DNA from: Gammaproteobacteria bacterium (ex Lamellibrachia satsuma)
GTDB taxonomy: Bacteria > Pseudomonadota > Gammaproteobacteria > Chromatiales > Chromatiaceae
Direction of reading: 5' to 3'
Assembly: GCA_019623805.1 (NCBI GenBank)
Contig: CP053680.1
Location: 4,224,423 to 4,288,422, forward strand
DNA: 64,000 nt
Positions 18,452 to 53,471 of this stretch are shown here, one piece after another (within the stretch, counting starts at the first letter, position 1; each line of letters starts with the position of its first letter). The notes beneath the pieces were generated by a model. That model was not told where the DNA came from, did no database searches, and saw only the letters and a list, made by a program, of their open reading frames with translations. Position numbers and translations under genes: made by a program.

Positions 18452-19507
18452 ATGCACAGCAATGCACCTGAACTCTACCGACTGATAGAGACAGTTCTAC
18501 AGGAGAGACTGGACAATGGCACAACCCGCTGCCACCTCTGCCCCTGGCGTTGCAAGATCAGCCATGGCCAGCGCGGCTTTTGTCAAGCCCATGTCAATCG
18601 AAACGGCACCCTCTACAATCTCTCCTACGGCATCCTCTCCGCCATCCATGTCAATCCGATAGAAGAGAAACCGGTACGACATTACCGGCCGGGCACCCAG
18701 GTCCTGTCAGTCGGCAGCTACGGCTGCAGTTTTCGTTGTGGCGGCTGCCATAACCTGGATATCTCCTGGGGCGTGACCGCGCTGGAAGACCTGGCCCGGG
18801 GCGAATCAACAGCCGCCTATGTTCGGCCCGAAGAGCTGGTCGGTATCGCCCTTCGACAGGGGGTTCAGGGCATCGCCTTCACCTATTCCGAACCGGCAGT
18901 CTGGCTGGAATATGTAATCGACGTATGTGAGCAAGCCCATCAGGCTGGTCTCTACACCGTCTACGTCTCGAACAGTTTCGTCACAGAAGAGGCGCTGGAG
19001 CTGGTTGCACCCCATCTCGACGTGCTCTGTTCCGACGTCAAGAGCCTGCACGATGACTTTTACCATGCCATCTGCCCTACCGCCAAGGTCAGCGAGATCC
19101 TCGCCACGATCGAGAGGGCGCAGGAACTGGGTATCCACGTCGAGACCCGCTCCAACCTGATCCCTGGCAGAAACGATGACCCTGATGAGTTGTATCGAAT
19201 CGCCTGCTGGGTGCGGGAACACCTGGGCGAGACCAGCCCCTGGCATATCACCAAATTCTTTCCTGCCTACAAGCTCAGCCATCTGCCGGAAACCCCGAAT
19301 AAAACCCTGTGGTCAGCCTATGAACAGGCCCAGCGTGCCGGGCTGAAAAATGTCTATGTCTACCCTGACAAGGGCTGCGACTGCGCAACAGAGAATCGTC
19401 CTCTAGACGACTATCTGGAGGGAGATGTGGGCGATCTCCAGACTGTGAAAAAATGCAGCGCAAACTGCTGCGGTAGTGAAGGTGTATTGTTGAGAAAATA
19501 TGAGTGA
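18452..19507 (+). CDS. Radical SAM enzyme, AmmeMemoRadiSam (AmrS)-like, with Cys-rich tail
   Basis: CHLCPWRC...C N-terminal cluster, PIEEKP, CSFRCGGC (CxxxCxxC), TYSEP, FFPAYKL; tail GCDC...CSANCCG. Confidence 0.85.
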   Translation: MHSNAPELYRLIETVLQERLDNGTTRCHLCPWRCKISHGQRGFCQAHVNRNGTLYNLSYGILSAIHVNPIEEKPVRHYRPGTQVLSVGSYGCSFRCGGCHNLDISWGVTALEDLARGESTAAYVRPEELVGIALRQGVQGIAFTYSEPAVWLEYVIDVCEQAHQAGLYTVYVSNSFVTEEALELVAPHLDVLCSDVKSLHDDFYHAICPTAKVSEILATIERAQELGIHVETRSNLIPGRNDDPDELYRIACWVREHLGETSPWHITKFFPAYKLSHLPETPNKTLWSAYEQAQRAGLKNVYVYPDKGCDCATENRPLDDYLEGDVGDLQTVKKCSANCCGSEGVLLRKYE

Positions 19508-38011: not shown

Positions 38012-40624
38012 GGTGACAACGAAGCAGCGCACAAACCAAAACATCCAGCAGAAGTTCCCGTTTCTACAACGACAAGCCTAGCACCAGACGAGAAGGTCGC
38101 ACTTTTTCTCCGCCTCTTTCAAGGCCGAGAGGATGTGTATCCGAAATTGTGGCAGAACCAAAAAACGGGCAAGAAGGGTTATTCGCCTGCATGTTCGAAT
38201 GAGTGGATTCGCGGAGTATGTGAGAAGCCCCGGGTAAAATGCGGTGAGTGCTCCAATCAGGCCTTCCTGCCAGTAACAACCGAGGTGATTCTGGACCATC
38301 TCCAGGGACGTCACATCATTGGTGTATACCCTATGCTGAAGGACGATACCTGCCGATTTATCGCAGCCGATTTTGACAAAGCAGCTTGGCATGAAGACGT
38401 TATGGCTTTTACGGAAACCTGTCGGCGAGCAGACGTTCCTTATGCCATTGAGCGTTCCCGTTCTGGGAATGGCGCACACGTCTGGTTTTTTTTCAACAAT
38501 TTTGTTTCCGCAGCGACAGCAAGGAAGATGGGCAGTTATTTTATTACGGAAACCATGGCCAGACGACATCAACTCAGCATGGCATCCTATGACCGGCTTT
38601 TCCCAAACCAGGATACCTTACCCAATGGTGGCTTCGGCAATCTCATCGCTCTCCCGCTTCAATATCACCCGCGACAGAAAGACAATACCCTCTTTCTGAA
38701 TGACGAGCTGGAGCCATTTCCAGATCAGTGGGAATTCCTCGCATCGCTGGTTCCGATTCAGGTAGAGAAGGTTGAAAAGATCGCCATGGAAGCCACAACC
38801 TGTGGCCAGGTGACTGGTCTCCAGATTTCCATTACCGAGGAGGATGTTGTTGATGCCAGCCCGTGGTTGAGGCCGCCCTCCCGAAAACCAAAGCACATTC
38901 CGATCACCAACCCCGTTCCACATCAGGTGCGAGGTATTTTATCCCAACGTTTTTACATCGAGAAAGCCGGCCTACCGTCACCCTTGATCAATCAGATCCA
39001 ACGGTTTGCCGCATTCCAGAACCCAGAGTTCTACAAGAAACAAAATCTTCGACTTTTCACGGCACTGACTCCCCGCGTAATCTCCTGCGCAGAAGATCAT
39101 GGAAAGCACATCAGTCTGCCGCGAGGGTGTCTCGACGATGTACAGACATTGCTCCAGGAATACAAAAGCCACCTTGAGGTGGAAGATCTGAGAAGCCTCG
39201 GCGATCCCGTGGATGTTAGCTTCTTCGGTGAATTGACCGATGCCCAGCACCAAGCAGCGAAAGCCATACTCGAGGACGACAACGGCGTGATCGTGGCGCC
39301 ACCTGGTTTCGGGAAAACCGTCCTTGGAACCTACCTGATCGCTGCGCGAATGTGCAGCACCTTGATCCTGGTGCATAGACAGCCGCTGTTGGAACAATGG
39401 AGATCGCAGATCGGCATCTTTCTTGACCGAGATGCGAAATCAATCGGCCAGATTGGTGGTGGGAAACGCAAGCTGACAGGGCAAATCGACGTGGCCATGA
39501 TCCAGAGCCTGTCCCGAAAAGAGACCATGGACGACATCGTGGCCAAGTATGGGCAGGTTATCATCGATGAATGCCACCATCTCCCAGCTGTTTCATTCGA
39601 GCGCGTCCTTTCTGAGATAAAGGCAAAGTATGTTGTCGGATTGACCGCCACACCGCAGCGCCGCGACGGCCACCAGCCCATCATCCATATGCAGATCGGA
39701 CCGATTCGATTCAGGGTCGATCCACGTAGTCAGTTAGCACAATGCCCCTTCGAACATCGACTTGTAGTTAAGGAAACCGGCTTTGAGCCTCCCATGCAGG
39801 CATCCGATATAACCATTCAAGTTCTATACAGTCTGTTGATAGCCGATGAAAAGCGCAATGAGCAAATCATCAATGATGTACTTCTGGCTATGTAAGAAAG
39901 TCGATCACCGATCGTGCTGACGGAACGAAAAAACCACCTTGAGGATCTCCATCAACGGTTAAAAGGCTTTGTCCGGCATATCGTCGCTCTGCAGGGAGGA
40001 CAATCGGCAAAAGAACGGCGCAAAGTCCAGGAACAACTCGCCTCTATTCCAATGGAAGAAGAGCGCCTCTTGCTGGCAACCGGAAGATACATCGGGGAAG
40101 GATTTGATGATGCACGCCTGGATACCCTGTTTCTTTCGCTACCGGTTTCGTGGAAAGGTACCCTCGTACAATATGCTGGACGACTGCACCGGCTACATCC
40201 TGGCAAACGCGAAGTGCGTATTGTCGACTACGTTGATGGCAAGGTGCCCATGCTCGCGAGAATGTATGAAAAACGACGTGTCGGTTATCGCTCTATGGGA
40301 TACCGAGAAGAGGGTAGCGGGACTTTCCTCGATTAGCCGTATAGGCCAACAGCGCTGGCCGCCCTACCCGACAAGGGCTCTTGTATCGATAGTAGTATGG
40401 ATTGACGAGTTTCAGTAGCAGAACTTGACGAAAAATTTCTAACAGAAAAATACAAGATAACGGAGTAGAAAGCTGACATCCACGGCTTTTCTAGCCGTTA
40501 CATCAGCATCTTTTTCCAGGTTTTTCGAGTGCCAGGAGTGGTTTTCTGGGCAAAAAACGCCGATTTTCTCTTAAAGTAATATGGAGATAATGACTGTATT
40601 CTATTGATTAATAGAACAATAAAA

Positions 40625-50051: not shown

Positions 50052-50489
50052 TCAGTAACGAAAACCCTCACGCACCGGCAGGGTAATAGTAACCAGGCTC
50101 TCACTTTCAACCCGTTTCATATTCTCCACATCTGCATCCCTGGGAATCGAAATACGTTGACTGAAACTGCTCGAACTGCGACTGTAACTGTAGCTACCCC
50201 GCTCATTGCTCCGTTCTGCCTCCTGGCTGGTATCATTACTGATCACCAGGAATCTTCCCTTCACATTCACCTGAACCGCTTGGGGATCGATGTTTTCGGT
50301 ATGGATCCTTACCACATACCCCGCTTCACTCCTGCTTTTCTCGACTCTCAACCGTTGAAAATGGCGAAAACTGGACGTTTGGTAAGGTGATCCCATGTAT
50401 CCCGGATATCCATAGAGCGGCTGGGCATTCGCCAGGAAGGCAAGACTCAGCAACACAGCCAAACTCAACATTGTCAGTAACCGTTTCAT
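50052..50489 (-). CDS. Hsp20/alpha-crystallin-domain protein with Sec signal peptide
   Basis: MKRLLTMLSLAVLLSLAFLANA; GYVVRI...VQVNVKGRFLVIS...FSQRISIPRDAD...LVTITLP. Confidence 0.75.
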   Translation of the reverse strand: MKRLLTMLSLAVLLSLAFLANAQPLYGYPGYMGSPYQTSSFRHFQRLRVEKSRSEAGYVVRIHTENIDPQAVQVNVKGRFLVISNDTSQEAERSNERGSYSYSRSSSSFSQRISIPRDADVENMKRVESESLVTITLPVREGFRY

Positions 50490-50492
50490 CTC

Positions 50493-52043
50493 TTACTCCT
50501 TTGCAGCCTCATGGCTAGAGCCAAAAGGTGCTGCATACTTCTCACTGTAGAACACTTCAAACTCTGCCCCATCTTTCCAGGCATCAGCGGACAATCCCGC
50601 CTTTCTCGCCAGATAGGTCAACGTCTGCTCCCGATTCCAGCCCTGCTCCACCGCAACCTCCGGAAGAAAAACTGCACTGCGCCCCTGTTTTTTAAAAATA
50701 ATACCCTGTTGGCCCACTTTGAAAGCTTCGAAGTGGGCAATGGGACGCGGAGGTGTCAATACACTCACCTCGATCTCAAGCCCCTCCAACTCTTCCGGGG
50801 TTACCGGCGGAAAGCGGCGATCCCGTACCGCTGCATTGCCGCCATTATTCAACACTGCCTGGAAGAGTGGGTCGCGTGGTCGAATATAGCCAATACAACC
50901 ACGCAACATACCGTCCTTTTTAAGGGTCACAAACGCCCCTGAAGGTCGCTCAAGCTCCGGTGGCAGATTGCGCAGCAACTGCTCACCTTCATGCTTGTCA
51001 TCCAGTACCGCACGCCTGATTCCGGCCACTGCAATCTGGTGCAATCTCTTGAGCTGCTCACTGCCCAGACGCCTGACTGAACCCTGGCTGCCAGCGATTG
51101 CTGTCGGAACATTCACTGCAATCACCACGTAGCTGACCGAATTTTCATAGTTGCCTGTCAGTTGGCCACTGGTCTTATAGGCCAGTGGCTCCAGTTCCGC
51201 CGAGACTGGCAACATGTGCAACAGCAGTGCAATGGGACGAAACCCACAGATGGTGATTCCGGTGCGCTGTTGATAGTCAAGAAACCCCTTTGCATCCCTC
51301 GCCACTATCCGCTCAATCGCCCCCCCATCAAGTTGCTGGATATTTGCAGGCGTCTCATCATTCAACGGAAACGGCGTATAGCCAAACCGTTTGCCATAGT
51401 GGGCGAAGTCGCTGGAAACCACCACCAGAGTCTGCTCATCCGCCAGTTCACGCAGCAGTTTTGCTGCCTGCGGGTAGGCCTCATCGTCCATCTGCCCCAC
51501 AAGTACCGGCACCAGTTTCCAACCCGGCTCCAGTACACGCTGCAGTAACGGCAGTTCAATTTCGATGCTGTGTTCCCGTTTGTGTGCCTTTGCATCTGCA
51601 CTGACAAGAGGCGATTTGCGCAACTGCTGTACTGCAACATGGTCAAGCGGCACTGAGCCTAGCGGAGTCTGGTAGGCAGCTACATCTGCAATAGAGAGTC
51701 CTTTGAAGGCGCTGTAGTGGCTGGGCGCCAGCAACAGAACCCGTTTGTAATCCATGCCTCGCACCAACTTGAAGGCTTTGGCTGCGGTTGGCCCGCTGTA
51801 CATATAACCGGCATGGGGAACGATCAGCGCCCGGAGAGGATTTTTCGCCTTGGACTGGGCATCGGAAGGATCATCCAGAAAGCCGTCCACAACCTTGGAC
51901 AGCTGTAGCGGATTCACCGGATACCAGGAGCCTGCAAGCACACTCTCCCTGATCTTTTCACCCGCAAGGGACTGGGATATCAGCAACAGCCCCGCCAGCA
52001 AAAGCGCGGAAATTACCCATCGCTGAAATCGACCGAGTCTCAT
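50493..52043 (-). CDS. Memo (AmrB)-AMMECR1 (AmrA) fusion with N-terminal signal peptide
   Basis: AGSWYP, PHAGYMYSG, EHSIEIELP, SSDFAHYG, TICG (Memo); GAFVTL, LRGCIG, DRRFPPV, FLPEVA (AMMECR1). Confidence 0.9.
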   Translation of the reverse strand: MRLGRFQRWVISALLLAGLLLISQSLAGEKIRESVLAGSWYPVNPLQLSKVVDGFLDDPSDAQSKAKNPLRALIVPHAGYMYSGPTAAKAFKLVRGMDYKRVLLLAPSHYSAFKGLSIADVAAYQTPLGSVPLDHVAVQQLRKSPLVSADAKAHKREHSIEIELPLLQRVLEPGWKLVPVLVGQMDDEAYPQAAKLLRELADEQTLVVVSSDFAHYGKRFGYTPFPLNDETPANIQQLDGGAIERIVARDAKGFLDYQQRTGITICGFRPIALLLHMLPVSAELEPLAYKTSGQLTGNYENSVSYVVIAVNVPTAIAGSQGSVRRLGSEQLKRLHQIAVAGIRRAVLDDKHEGEQLLRNLPPELERPSGAFVTLKKDGMLRGCIGYIRPRDPLFQAVLNNGGNAAVRDRRFPPVTPEELEGLEIEVSVLTPPRPIAHFEAFKVGQQGIIFKKQGRSAVFLPEVAVEQGWNREQTLTYLARKAGLSADAWKDGAEFEVFYSEKYAAPFGSSHEAAKE

Positions 52044-52054
52044 TCTTCTCTCCT

Positions 52055-52231
52055 CTATTCGTCCTCTCCCCTGGGCCGATAGTAGTCCGCTTCACGCATG
52101 GCCATTTTCTCCTCCCGCGTGCTTCCTACCGCCCAAGGGAGGGCCATCACTCCTGCAATCATACCGCCCAGTACTCCCAGAAAACGCCTGCGAGAGTGCC
52201 CGTTGCGTCTCCACACCTCCCTCATCCTCAT
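52055..52231 (-). CDS. 58-aa twin-arginine (Tat) signal peptide protein, absent from the ORF track
   Basis: MRMREVWRRNGHSRRRFLGVLGGMIAGVMALPWAVGSTREEKMAMREADYYRPRGEDE*; TAATG overlap with the radical SAM stop; fills the gap to the RBS of the next gene. Confidence 0.75.
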   Translation of the reverse strand: MRMREVWRRNGHSRRRFLGVLGGMIAGVMALPWAVGSTREEKMAMREADYYRPRGEDE

Positions 52232-53208
52232 TACCAGACTCCCGGAACCGGCTCATTGCAGGTCGGACAACGACCGTCGCTGGTCAGTTTGTATTCACTG
52301 ATCATGAAACCCTCTCTCTTGATCAATAGAGTGCCATCGACCGGACAGTAGGTTGAATTACCTTTATGCCCTGAGATATTGCCGATATAAACATATTCCA
52401 ATCCCGCATCCATCGCCTCCTGACGCGCACGATCCAGGGTCTCTCCCGGCGTCGGCGGCAGGTTGCGCATCCGGTACATGGGATGAAAGCGGCTGAAATG
52501 GAGGGGAGTGCCTTCTCCCAGCTCACGCCTGATCCACTTCGCCATGCGCCGGATCATGGAGAGATCATCGTTCAGCGTCGGGATAAGCAGGTTGGTCACC
52601 TCCAGCCAGACCTCCTCCTCCCGAAACGTCACCAGGGCATCCAATACCGGCTGCAGCGTTGCCCCGGTTGTTTTGCGGTAGAAGCCGTCGTCGAAGGCCT
52701 TCAGATCGGTGTTAGTGGCGTCGATCACTTTACAGAGACGGCGTAGAGGCTCAGTGTTGATATAGCCGGCAGTGATGAACACATTCTTCATCCCGGCCTC
52801 ATGAGCCAGGATACTGCTGTCATAGACATATTCGTAGAAGACCACCGGATCGGAGTAAGTATAGGCGATGCTTTCGCAGCCCTGATCTCTGGCCAGGTCG
52901 ATGAGATCCACGGGGTCAGCGTTGAAGATCTCCTCTATCTCCTCCCCACCGCTTTGGGAAAGTTGCCAGTTCTGGCAGTTAAGGCAGTGCAGGTTGCAGC
53001 CTGCCGTCGCAATGGAAAACACGGGTGAACCGGGATGAAAATGGTAGAGCGGTTTCTTCTCCATCGGGTCGATATGCATCGCGGAGGGCCGTCCGTAGGT
53101 GGAAGCCAGCAGTTTGCCACCAACATTGACCCGCACCCGGCAGTCACCAGCCCCTCCTTCGGGGATCACACACTTGCGCGGACAGAGTTCGCAAACCACC
53201 TCTCTCAT
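52231..53208 (-). CDS. amrS: AmmeMemoRadiSam radical SAM enzyme
   Basis: CELCPRKC...C, DPMEKKPLYHFHPG, GCNLHCLNCQN, TYSDP, FSRFHP. ATG 53208 follows a GGAGGA RBS with ATGA overlap. Confidence 0.92.
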   Translation of the reverse strand: MREVVCELCPRKCVIPEGGAGDCRVRVNVGGKLLASTYGRPSAMHIDPMEKKPLYHFHPGSPVFSIATAGCNLHCLNCQNWQLSQSGGEEIEEIFNADPVDLIDLARDQGCESIAYTYSDPVVFYEYVYDSSILAHEAGMKNVFITAGYINTEPLRRLCKVIDATNTDLKAFDDGFYRKTTGATLQPVLDALVTFREEEVWLEVTNLLIPTLNDDLSMIRRMAKWIRRELGEGTPLHFSRFHPMYRMRNLPPTPGETLDRARQEAMDAGLEYVYIGNISGHKGNSTYCPVDGTLLIKREGFMISEYKLTSDGRCPTCNEPVPGVW

Positions 53209-53471
53209 GGCGTTCCTCCGTGCTTGGGTAGCTGCAACTCCGCTGGTTTGGCGACATGGAACCACTCAGCTTCATGAGCACTCAACTTGCCGCTATCCAG
53301 TCTTTCTTGGAAGATTTCCATATCGATACGCCGCCAGCTTGAGCCAGTCATCTCCCCCTCTTGCTGCCCGACCAAAAACAACGCGATCACGACCAACGTC
53401 AGGCTCAACAGCCCGATGAGTCTGTAATCACTGCTATGCCAATGCCGGATCGCTTGTAACATGGAAATCAT
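53205..53471 (-). CDS. Small single-TM protein ending in LSAHEAEWF motif
   Basis: 88 aa, TM segment LIGLLSLTLVVIALFLVG; translationally coupled to amrS. Confidence 0.7.
   Translation of the reverse strand: MISMLQAIRHWHSSDYRLIGLLSLTLVVIALFLVGQQEGEMTGSSWRRIDMEIFQERLDSGKLSAHEAEWFHVAKPAELQLPKHGGTP

Follow-up and report, generated by a model that had tools for sequence, protein, structure and literature searches.

A 64,000-nucleotide stretch of the genome of Gammaproteobacteria bacterium (ex Lamellibrachia satsuma) (hereafter the window; contig CP053680.1, positions 4,224,423 to 4,288,422) carries an operon in which a radical S-adenosylmethionine (SAM) enzyme, AmrS, is flanked by the genes of two small proteins, Tat58 and TM88. 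Our best reading of these sequences is that the leader module was cut off AmrS in the clade of the window enzyme and is now encoded separately twice, as Tat58 (a twin-arginine translocation, or Tat, signal plus a short segment of the enzyme) and as TM88 (a membrane anchor plus the same kind of segment). We consider it probable that the operon specifies a split, envelope-directed AmmeMemoRadiSam system, in which the leader and first strand of AmrS are supplied in trans for hitchhiker export by Tat and for docking. The initial annotation of this DNA had raised supply in trans as one of two alternatives, and it is the one favoured here, given that Tat58 is collinear with leaders fused to AmrS elsewhere and that the motif of the TM88-type tail is confidently modelled together with the enzyme. 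The detached leaders suggest that an Fe-S enzyme leaves the cytoplasm under escort and is then docked at the membrane's outer face.

Two small genes beside a truncated AmrS

The six closely packed genes of the operon, as read from open reading frames (ORFs) and family searches, run on the minus strand from 57180 down to 50052. The two small ORFs that the initial annotation had picked out beside amrS were both confirmed, on the minus strand (Table 1), and they are joined tightly to it. The stop of TM88 and the start of amrS share bases in ATGA, as do the stop of amrS and the start of Tat58 in TAATG, and a GGAGGA ribosome-binding site precedes the amrS ATG. Both ORFs are open in the same places in six of seven other species of the genus, and both are also present, motif included, in genera G032, G033 and G024; G027 gives a weaker TM88-like match. 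Within the genus, the ratio of nonsynonymous to synonymous substitution rates (dN/dS) was 0.15 in frame for TM88, against 1.1-1.5 in the other two frames, and 0.50 for Tat58, against 0.83-1.03; AmrS itself gave 0.055. Tat58 and TM88 are real genes under frame-specific purifying selection. The substitution pattern is not the frame-independent one, with dN/dS near 1, that had been named beforehand as speaking against them, and conserved small ORFs do stand beside other amrS genes, as described below.

In Tat58 (MRMREVWRRNGHSRRRFLGVLGGMIAGVMALPWAVGSTREEKMAMREADYYRPRGEDE), SRRRFLG is followed by a hydrophobic core, a short linker and ...AMREADYYRPRGEDE, which contains READYYRP; AVG/S is a possible cleavage site. 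This is the build that had been described from the letters alone, a SRRRFL signal with a hydrophobic core and a very short mature part bearing the motif. TM88 has one transmembrane (TM) helix at residues 18-35 and a tail of about 50 residues (...WRRIDMEIFQERLDSGKLSAHEAEWFHVAKP...) made up of WRRID, a helix and HEAEWFH. The motif had been placed at the very end of this protein; it is indeed present, at residues 66-72, and 16 more residues lie beyond it. E67, A68 and W70 of TM88 are invariant in our alignment A9. That the two proteins have a (H/R)EA(D/E)(W/Y)(F/Y) motif in common, as first proposed, is beyond chance: the pattern [HRKQ]EA.[WFY][FYW] has three matches across the six frames of the window, two of them in TM88 and Tat58, versus a mean of 0.3 in 100 shuffles of the window. 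The third match, QEALFF at 40072 on the minus strand, is in an unrelated region, and chance probably explains it.

Tat58 belongs to a widespread family. A profile search of 1.84 billion representative proteins returned 166 matches at E <= 0.001, and of the best 150, all but four are small proteins that stand alone and are about 35-133 residues long (146 in number); the other four are longer and repetitive, with many partial matches. The twin arginine is invariant in the family alignment (A1). Position counts over 145 representatives give the C-terminal consensus GPRELSL[RHK]EADFY[RAK]PHDLAG-COOH, and this peptide is nearly invariant across more than 140 divergent representatives. Family members end in ...LHEADFYRPHDLAG, with LAG as the C-terminal end in 98 of the 146 small members among the matches listed; the genus of the window has a divergent ending, RPRGEDE. 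Against NCBIfam, Tat58 had no family match save a weak one to TAT_signal.

These data bear on a further alternative, that the two ORFs are debris of a gene rearrangement and have no function. They do resemble pieces of an ancestral N-terminus, and the in-frame dN/dS of Tat58 means that it evolves fairly fast in the genus. However, the frames are open and syntenic over several phyla, the C-terminal peptide is kept nearly invariant among the many representatives, and selection is specific to the frame, so that we regard decay as highly improbable.

Our reading of both proteins as detached leaders starts from the enzyme between them. AmrS begins MREVVCELCP, five residues ahead of the first Cys of CELCPRKC; it keeps the CNLHCLNC radical SAM motif and additional Cys clusters, has no signal peptide and, alone among the operon's products, lacks both an export signal and an anchor. 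The abrupt start remarked on in the initial annotation is real, as the match to TIGR04337 (398.4 bits, E 2.3e-119, cut-off 220; 401 bits in the genome search) covers model positions 10-333 only and positions 1-9 are absent. Cytoplasmic homologues, and most of the leader-bearing ones described below, match the model from position 1-3. The paralogue at 18452, which had been said to carry extra N-terminal residues, has 26 before its first Cys. The genome has three genes of TIGR04337 type, at 644 bits (canonical, outside the window), 401 bits (the window operon) and 229 bits (the 18452 paralogue).

The same division recurs among 301 genomes sampled from the phylum, where TIGR04337 scores are bimodal. 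Canonical enzymes score about 550-660 bits with a model start at 1-3, and 15 genomes have a second amrS of about 370-400 bits that starts at model position 7-12. A Tat58 homologue lies directly downstream of the short amrS in all 15. In the window, the TAATG overlap joins the gene of a protein with a putative Tat signal to that of a cofactor-bearing enzyme that has none, the pairing of genes expected for a Tat hitchhiker; at most loci read, the Tat58 ATG comes after a conserved ...GSL[AD] and shares bases with the stop of amrS. No genome outside these 15 matches the whole Tat58 profile, the remaining matches covering only the generic Tat-signal part of large proteins. The short enzymes start MxxVxC and, in a maximum-likelihood tree of the catalytic core, form one clade (Shimodaira-Hasegawa-like approximate likelihood ratio support, SH-aLRT, of 98; 28 rows). 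The members of this clade come from Pseudomonadota, Pirellulales and Thermodesulfobacteriota (L075, a Desulfomonilaceae genome, and L076), and the node at which it meets the cytoplasmic enzymes and one of the leader-bearing clades is unresolved.

A profile of the TM88 tail matches in 13 of the 301 genomes, 12 of which are among the 15 with a short AmrS; in two of the three short-AmrS genomes without a match, the contig carrying amrS ends early. In most genomes the match is the C-terminus of a membrane-protein frame of 1270-1400 residues, often unlinked to amrS, and in G262, G148 and G274 a membrane-protein frame with such a C-terminus stands directly upstream of amrS. As the TM88-type tail is fused to the large membrane protein elsewhere, the stand-alone 88-residue gene of the window's genus is a piece split off that protein.

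Leaders fused to AmrS in other phyla

We collected 80 AmrS loci from other phyla by way of the enzyme and read the frames upstream of its first Cys; the class counts that follow are approximate. About 39 of the 80 encode a twin-arginine signal, a linker of 20-40 residues and then the motif, as in Verrucomicrobia (...VSRRQFLETAG...ATLHEADFYEKLAGGSVRC), Poribacteria (...LSRREFIECAA...FVTKEAMYYEKLHENEIRC) and Aenigmatarchaeota (...MTRREFVKKAT...WKWSKEGYHYIKLGNNVQC). About eight have a TM anchor, a general secretory (Sec) signal or a lipoprotein N-terminus followed by the motif (for example ...DLDLQEASYWQELPEDRVRC). Cytoplasmic AmrS accounts for about 18 loci and begins M(K/R)EAx[FY]Y... or, in Proteobacteria, xRYWHxLxDGRIQC, and about three loci have a Cys/His-rich N-terminal extension with CxxCH. 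The suggestion in the initial annotation that many AmrS proteins start with an EAxxY-type segment, sometimes after a Tat leader, was therefore sound. The register of the motif in cis is fixed from the first Cys, with E at -14, A at -13, [FY] at -11 and [YW] at -10. Short AmrS begins at -5, and the window enzyme therefore lacks exactly the leader-plus-motif module.

Ten leader-bearing enzymes tested on TIGR04337 scored 364-396 bits, and in eight of them the match began at position 1-3, after 35-80 extra residues; TIGR01409 (TAT_signal) was above its cut-off in four of the ten. When cut at -5, leader-bearing N-termini resemble Tat58 proteins, and that of the Verrucomicrobia homologue L119, which reads ...LHEADFYEKLAGGSVRC, even ends in LAG. 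A profile-profile comparison (hhalign) of Tat58 with the fused Tat leaders gave 96.2% probability (E 2.5e-9), aligned from RR through EADFY. This demonstrates, at the level of sequence, that the Tat58 family is homologous to and collinear with the fused leaders. TM88 matched the anchor-type in-cis N-termini more weakly than Tat58 matched its counterparts, at 71% probability and E 3.8e-5 over the motif. No fused forms were found when the Tat58 profile itself was used among the 1.84 billion representatives, a consequence of the sensitivity limit, as fused leaders score only about 17-19 bits on it.

Gene neighbourhoods divide in the same way. Leader-bearing and short amrS genes adjoin SpeE-like membrane proteins and Memo-AMMECR1 fusions with hydrophobic N-termini, whereas cytoplasmic amrS genes adjoin separate, signal-less Memo and AMMECR1 genes and no SpeE-like membrane protein. 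Leader-bearing AmrS (in Bacteroidota, Thermodesulfobacteriota, Acidobacteriota, Verrucomicrobiota, Omnitrophota and one Aenigmatarchaeota genome) is like the window system in branch, neighbours and motif register; the difference is that leader and motif lie within the enzyme there and in separate genes here.

The homology of the motif to a part of the enzyme also tells against the second alternative of the initial annotation, substrates resembling ribosomally synthesised and post-translationally modified peptides (RiPPs). Worked out in full, this would mean that AmrS would stay in the cytoplasm and modify EAD[FY]Y of Tat58, and perhaps the TM88 tail, and the peptide would then be exported and processed by a periplasmic Memo-AMMECR1. 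Such a scheme would account for the translational coupling of amrS to a peptide with a strongly conserved 20-residue C-terminus, and would unite a cytoplasmic enzyme with periplasmic partners in one pathway in which SAM is not needed outside. Moreover, the nearest fold to AmrS is that of pyruvate formate-lyase activating enzyme (PFL-AE), which acts on a peptide loop. However, homologues of both the cytoplasmic and the leader-bearing kind have, as part of the enzyme, a segment that is homologous to the motif and in register with it, and the sister enzymes bear their own Tat signal, so that the enzyme itself would be the exported cargo. Pfam reports only Radical_SAM (PF04055) on AmrS, with neither a SPASM domain nor a RiPP recognition element (RRE), and NCBIfam matches are to PFL-AE-type activases. 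In addition, a short unfolded peptide does not need Tat, and the aromatic residues of the motif are replaced in some lineages. We find little support for modified peptides and consider them unlikely.

Several loci depart from the common pattern. In family f58 (L063, L064, L066, L067 and L068), Tat58 has degenerate motifs, QQARCERADTLAG, LDAVDYAAPCIWAG and AAADCSVAWHLAG, and the first AmrS strand is altered too, from VVCEL to LECQL, LECTL or VTCTL; this may be co-variation, seen in a single lineage. In Pirellulales (L078 3466-3654; L079 3442-3654), a small ORF with a Tat signal, about 60-70 residues long, likewise comes after the short AmrS, but its ending is ...KYPG...KWSG, not EADFY...LAG. 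This ending resembles the WKWS element ahead of the motif in the in-cis leaders of Bacteroidota and Desulfobacterales, and the split point in Pirellulales may be located elsewhere than in the clade of the window. In L091 (Chloroflexia), L136 (an uncultured delta proteobacterium) and L147 (Acidobacteriota), the EAxYY segment is replaced by CGDCH, CGTCH and CLKCH, respectively, within the N-terminal extension; CxxCH is the haem-c attachment signature. L080, L093, L108, L123 and L151 have Sec-type, signal-anchor or lipoprotein-type N-termini instead of Tat, which is puzzling for an Fe-S enzyme.

Candidate route to the outer face of the membrane

We found no solved AmrS structure, only PFL-AE matches, and the AmrS core is closest to PFL-AE 3CB8 (TM-score 0.80 on the target). 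In G148 the membrane-protein tail and amrS share one frame with a single TGA between them. The chain modelled with AlphaFold2 was accordingly the natural read-through, that is, the G148 tail, the TGA (as Gly) and AmrS. In the second of two runs, the alignment had 97 rows, distant homologues were trimmed so that they carried no motif information, and tail-only rows, which MAFFT had set inside the enzyme body, were left out. This model had a mean predicted local distance difference test score (pLDDT) of 95 and a predicted template modelling score (pTM) of 0.93. The motif residues 21-30 (AEKEALWYHP) reached pLDDT 94, with short strands at 23-24 and 28-30, and the first AmrS strand (LVC, 48-50) was formed; the linker had pLDDT 70, and WRRID with the helix about 85. 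From this model we infer that the motif would pair with the first AmrS strand.

The model also bears on a different partner for the motif. It might dock Memo-AMMECR1 and not AmrS, the tail and the Tat peptide recruiting the exported Memo-AMMECR1 while AmrS stays inside; in canonical systems, the partners would then be bound by the AmrS N-terminus. Outside is the predicted location of the TM88 tail, of mature Tat58 and of Memo-AMMECR1 alike, and the AmrS N-terminal segment is not known to have an established function in any system, which leaves room for this view. However, AlphaFold2 confidently places the TM88 tail in a chain with AmrS alone. The Tat58 signal would be left without a folded cargo, since Memo-AMMECR1 has its own Sec signal, and AmrS would be cut off from its partners although its sister enzymes are Tat substrates. 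We give docking of Memo-AMMECR1 only a small chance of being correct.

In the split system that we favour, AmrS would fold and gain its Fe-S clusters in the cytoplasm, where the C-terminal segment of Tat58 would bind it as the missing first strand, and Tat would carry the two out together, with AmrS as the hitchhiker. A tatC gene is present in the genome (241.6 bits, profile search). Outside, the TM88 tail would take the same or an adjacent site on AmrS and dock the enzyme on the NosR/SpeE-like protein, whose FMN and Fe-S modules would pass electrons outward, and Memo-AMMECR1, exported by Sec, would work beside it. If the escort binds only a folded acceptor, the split could serve quality control. 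A fuller version of this scheme is more tentative, and we place it a little short of even: the whole radical SAM-Memo-AMMECR1 machine would lie outside the membrane, the C-terminal peptide of the 58-residue escort would complete the N-terminal hairpin of AmrS, restricting export to folded enzyme, the enzyme would then be handed over to a strand of the same type on the membrane-protein tail, and electrons, possibly with the adenosyl cofactor, would be fed across.

The N-terminus of TM88 is predicted to be inside, by the positive-inside rule, and its tail outside, because where the tail is fused to the large protein a further TM helix of about 19 residues comes after the Fe-S domain that is cytoplasmic in NapH/NosR. 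If the tail were inside, AmrS could be tethered to the cytoplasmic face without export, held near the Fe-S module by TM88 and by an untranslocated or membrane-inserted Tat58. The problem of SAM supply would then be avoided, hydropathy-based topology is crude, and the NapH/NosR-type 4Fe-4S domain, which stands ahead of the tail in fused forms, lies in the cytoplasm in those relatives that have been characterised. Yet the same hydrophobic helix between Fe-S domain and tail puts the tail outside, the positive-inside rule puts the TM88 N-terminus inside, the textbook RRxFLK signals on sister AmrS favour real translocation, and export signals are found on all partners. A cytoplasmic tether seems to us improbable.

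Several observations nevertheless weigh against a split system that exports AmrS. The window Tat58 scores 13.9 bits on TIGR01409, below the cut-off of 16.7 (family member P0129, at 18.0 bits, is above it). The aromatic pair of the Tat58 motif is degenerate in some lineages (L058, L063, L067). The Sec-type or lipoprotein signals on some in-cis homologues are hard to square with export of a folded Fe-S protein. An initial AlphaFold2 run on a shallow alignment of 60 close homologues gave a poor N-domain and tail, with the motif below pLDDT 50. Two motif-bearing partners for one presumed acceptor site would need a handover or a second site. Finally, we know of no SAM source for a radical SAM enzyme outside the cytoplasm.

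To our knowledge, the cytoplasm is taken to be where radical SAM enzymes work, since they depend on Fe-S assembly, SAM and low-potential electrons, and a search of the literature on periplasmic or Tat-dependent radical SAM enzymes found none. The branch of AmrS with Tat leaders, together with the split form, would imply a radical SAM enzyme working at the outer face of the membrane, which raises the question of how SAM and electrons are supplied there. If this is true, the split form would be a Tat escort pared down to a signal and one complementing strand, a natural analogue of engineered split-tag export assays.

Related systems and operon partners

Canonical AmmeMemoRadiSam consists of TIGR04335 (AmrA/AMMECR1), TIGR04336 (AmrB/Memo) and TIGR04337 (AmrS), and the same three families are present here. 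Unlike the canonical system, the window has an AmrS without model positions 1-9 and in a separate clade at about 400 bits, a Memo and an AMMECR1 that are fused and carry a signal peptide, and, in addition, a NosR/SpeE-like membrane protein and the two small leader proteins. AmmeMemoRadiSam has eukaryotic relatives in MEMO1 and AMMECR1, and the function of the canonical system is, as far as we know, unsolved. Going by titles and the opening lines of abstracts, none of the papers found to name AmmeMemoRadiSam is about the system itself, and we found no paper on leader-bearing or split AmrS forms. What is new is the envelope-directed AmrS branch and the split form with its detached leader-plus-strand; the protein families and Tat hitchhiking were known. 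The two short peptides, which possibly bind AmrS, offer experimental handles on AmmeMemoRadiSam. The bacteria that carry it here are symbionts of tubeworms that oxidise sulfur, and relatives of such symbionts; going by the source names of the 97%-identical proteins, the organism is closely related to the symbionts of Escarpia and Lamellibrachia.

Two kinds of known Tat-dependent proteins invite comparison. TIGR02811, found near formate dehydrogenase genes, comprises Tat-signal proteins of at most 70 residues with a conserved C-terminal peptide of about 20 residues. These proteins have the same build as Tat58 and are likewise encoded next to a redox enzyme, but the C-terminal motif and the partner enzyme differ. 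Hitchhiker co-translocation by Tat is known from the small and large subunits of E. coli hydrogenase-2 (Rodrigue et al., 1999, as cited in PMC13673990), and PaoABC is a further case (PMC4273604). As in these systems, a signal-less cofactor protein would leave the cell interior folded and bound to a twin-arginine partner, which is what we propose for Tat58 and AmrS. Unlike them, the Tat58 escort is a signal plus a peptide of roughly 20 residues, a detached piece of the cargo's own N-terminus with no folded subunit, and the candidate cargo is a radical SAM enzyme whose dependence on Tat is predicted from sequence.

Table 1. Genes and motifs of the proposed split AmmeMemoRadiSam operon (window positions)
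Feature	Position	Strand	Basis
NosR/SpeE-like polytopic membrane protein, 1212 aa	53542..57180	-	PF01564, PF04205, PF12801; NCBIfam NosR, NapH, RnfG, MFS_SpdSyn
TM88, 88-aa single-pass membrane protein	53205..53471	-	ORF; synteny; dN/dS 0.15
HEAEWFH motif of TM88, residues 66-72	53256..53276	-	Family consensus [HKRQ]EAxW[YFW][HR]P
AmrS radical SAM enzyme, 325 aa, N-terminally truncated	52231..53208	-	TIGR04337, 398 bits; ATG 53208, stop 52231-52233
Tat58, mini-protein with a predicted Tat signal, 58 aa	52055..52231	-	ORF; family downstream of short amrS
READYYRP motif of Tat58	52073..52096	-	Family consensus L[RHK]EADFY[RAK]PHDLAG-COOH
Memo-AMMECR1 (AmrB-AmrA) fusion, 516 aa, predicted Sec-type signal peptide	50493..52043	-	TIGR04336, TIGR04335, PF01875, PF01871
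Hsp20/alpha-crystallin-like protein, 145 aa, predicted signal peptide; last operon gene	50052..50489	-	PF00011, 5.5e-8

The large membrane protein at the head of the operon combines a half resembling the major facilitator superfamily (MFS) and spermidine synthase with an FMN_bind domain and NapH/NosR-type Fer4_5 (CxxxCP) modules. It scores far below the family cut-offs (NosR, 58.3 versus 1000 bits; napH, 55.5 versus 213; rnfG, 34.2 versus 102), and its similarity to NosR and NapH is at the level of domains only (PF04205, PF12801). The FMN_bind and CxxxCP modules of its C-terminal half are held in common with NosR, NapH and RnfG; unlike these, it has the MFS/spermidine-synthase-like half, and most lineages add a TM helix and the motif tail. 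It is presumed to be a transmembrane electron conduit. Hydropathy-based TM counts were inconsistent in parity, and the side of the membrane on which the spermidine-synthase-like domain lies was therefore left unassigned.

Memo-AMMECR1, encoded two genes downstream of amrS, matches TIGR04336 at 230.6 bits and TIGR04335 at 161 bits, and its predicted signal peptide reads MRLGRFQRWVISALLLAGLLLISQSLA/GEK. The Hsp20-like protein, which closes the operon, has a hydrophobic N-terminus, MKRLLTMLSLAVLLSLAFLANA; a periplasmic protein of small heat-shock type is unusual.

Elsewhere in the same genome, a canonical pair at G000:C1:4000880-4001926 (L072 4863-6767) consists of a full-length AmrS (MKTVVPTKYWHALEDGRVQC...) followed by a signal-less Memo, downstream of a 794-residue gene that is hypF-like by sequence. 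Beside this canonical cytoplasmic AmrS-Memo pair, the envelope-directed system thus counts as a second copy, paralogous to the first. A third AmrS-like clade (L069-L071, from G089, G279 and G148) has proteins of about 495 residues that score about 295 bits on TIGR04337 and have CxLSP, not CxLCP, as their first motif. It adjoins a gene resembling, by sequence, a pyridoxal phosphate (PLP) enzyme of cystathionine-synthase type and is unrelated to the leader question.

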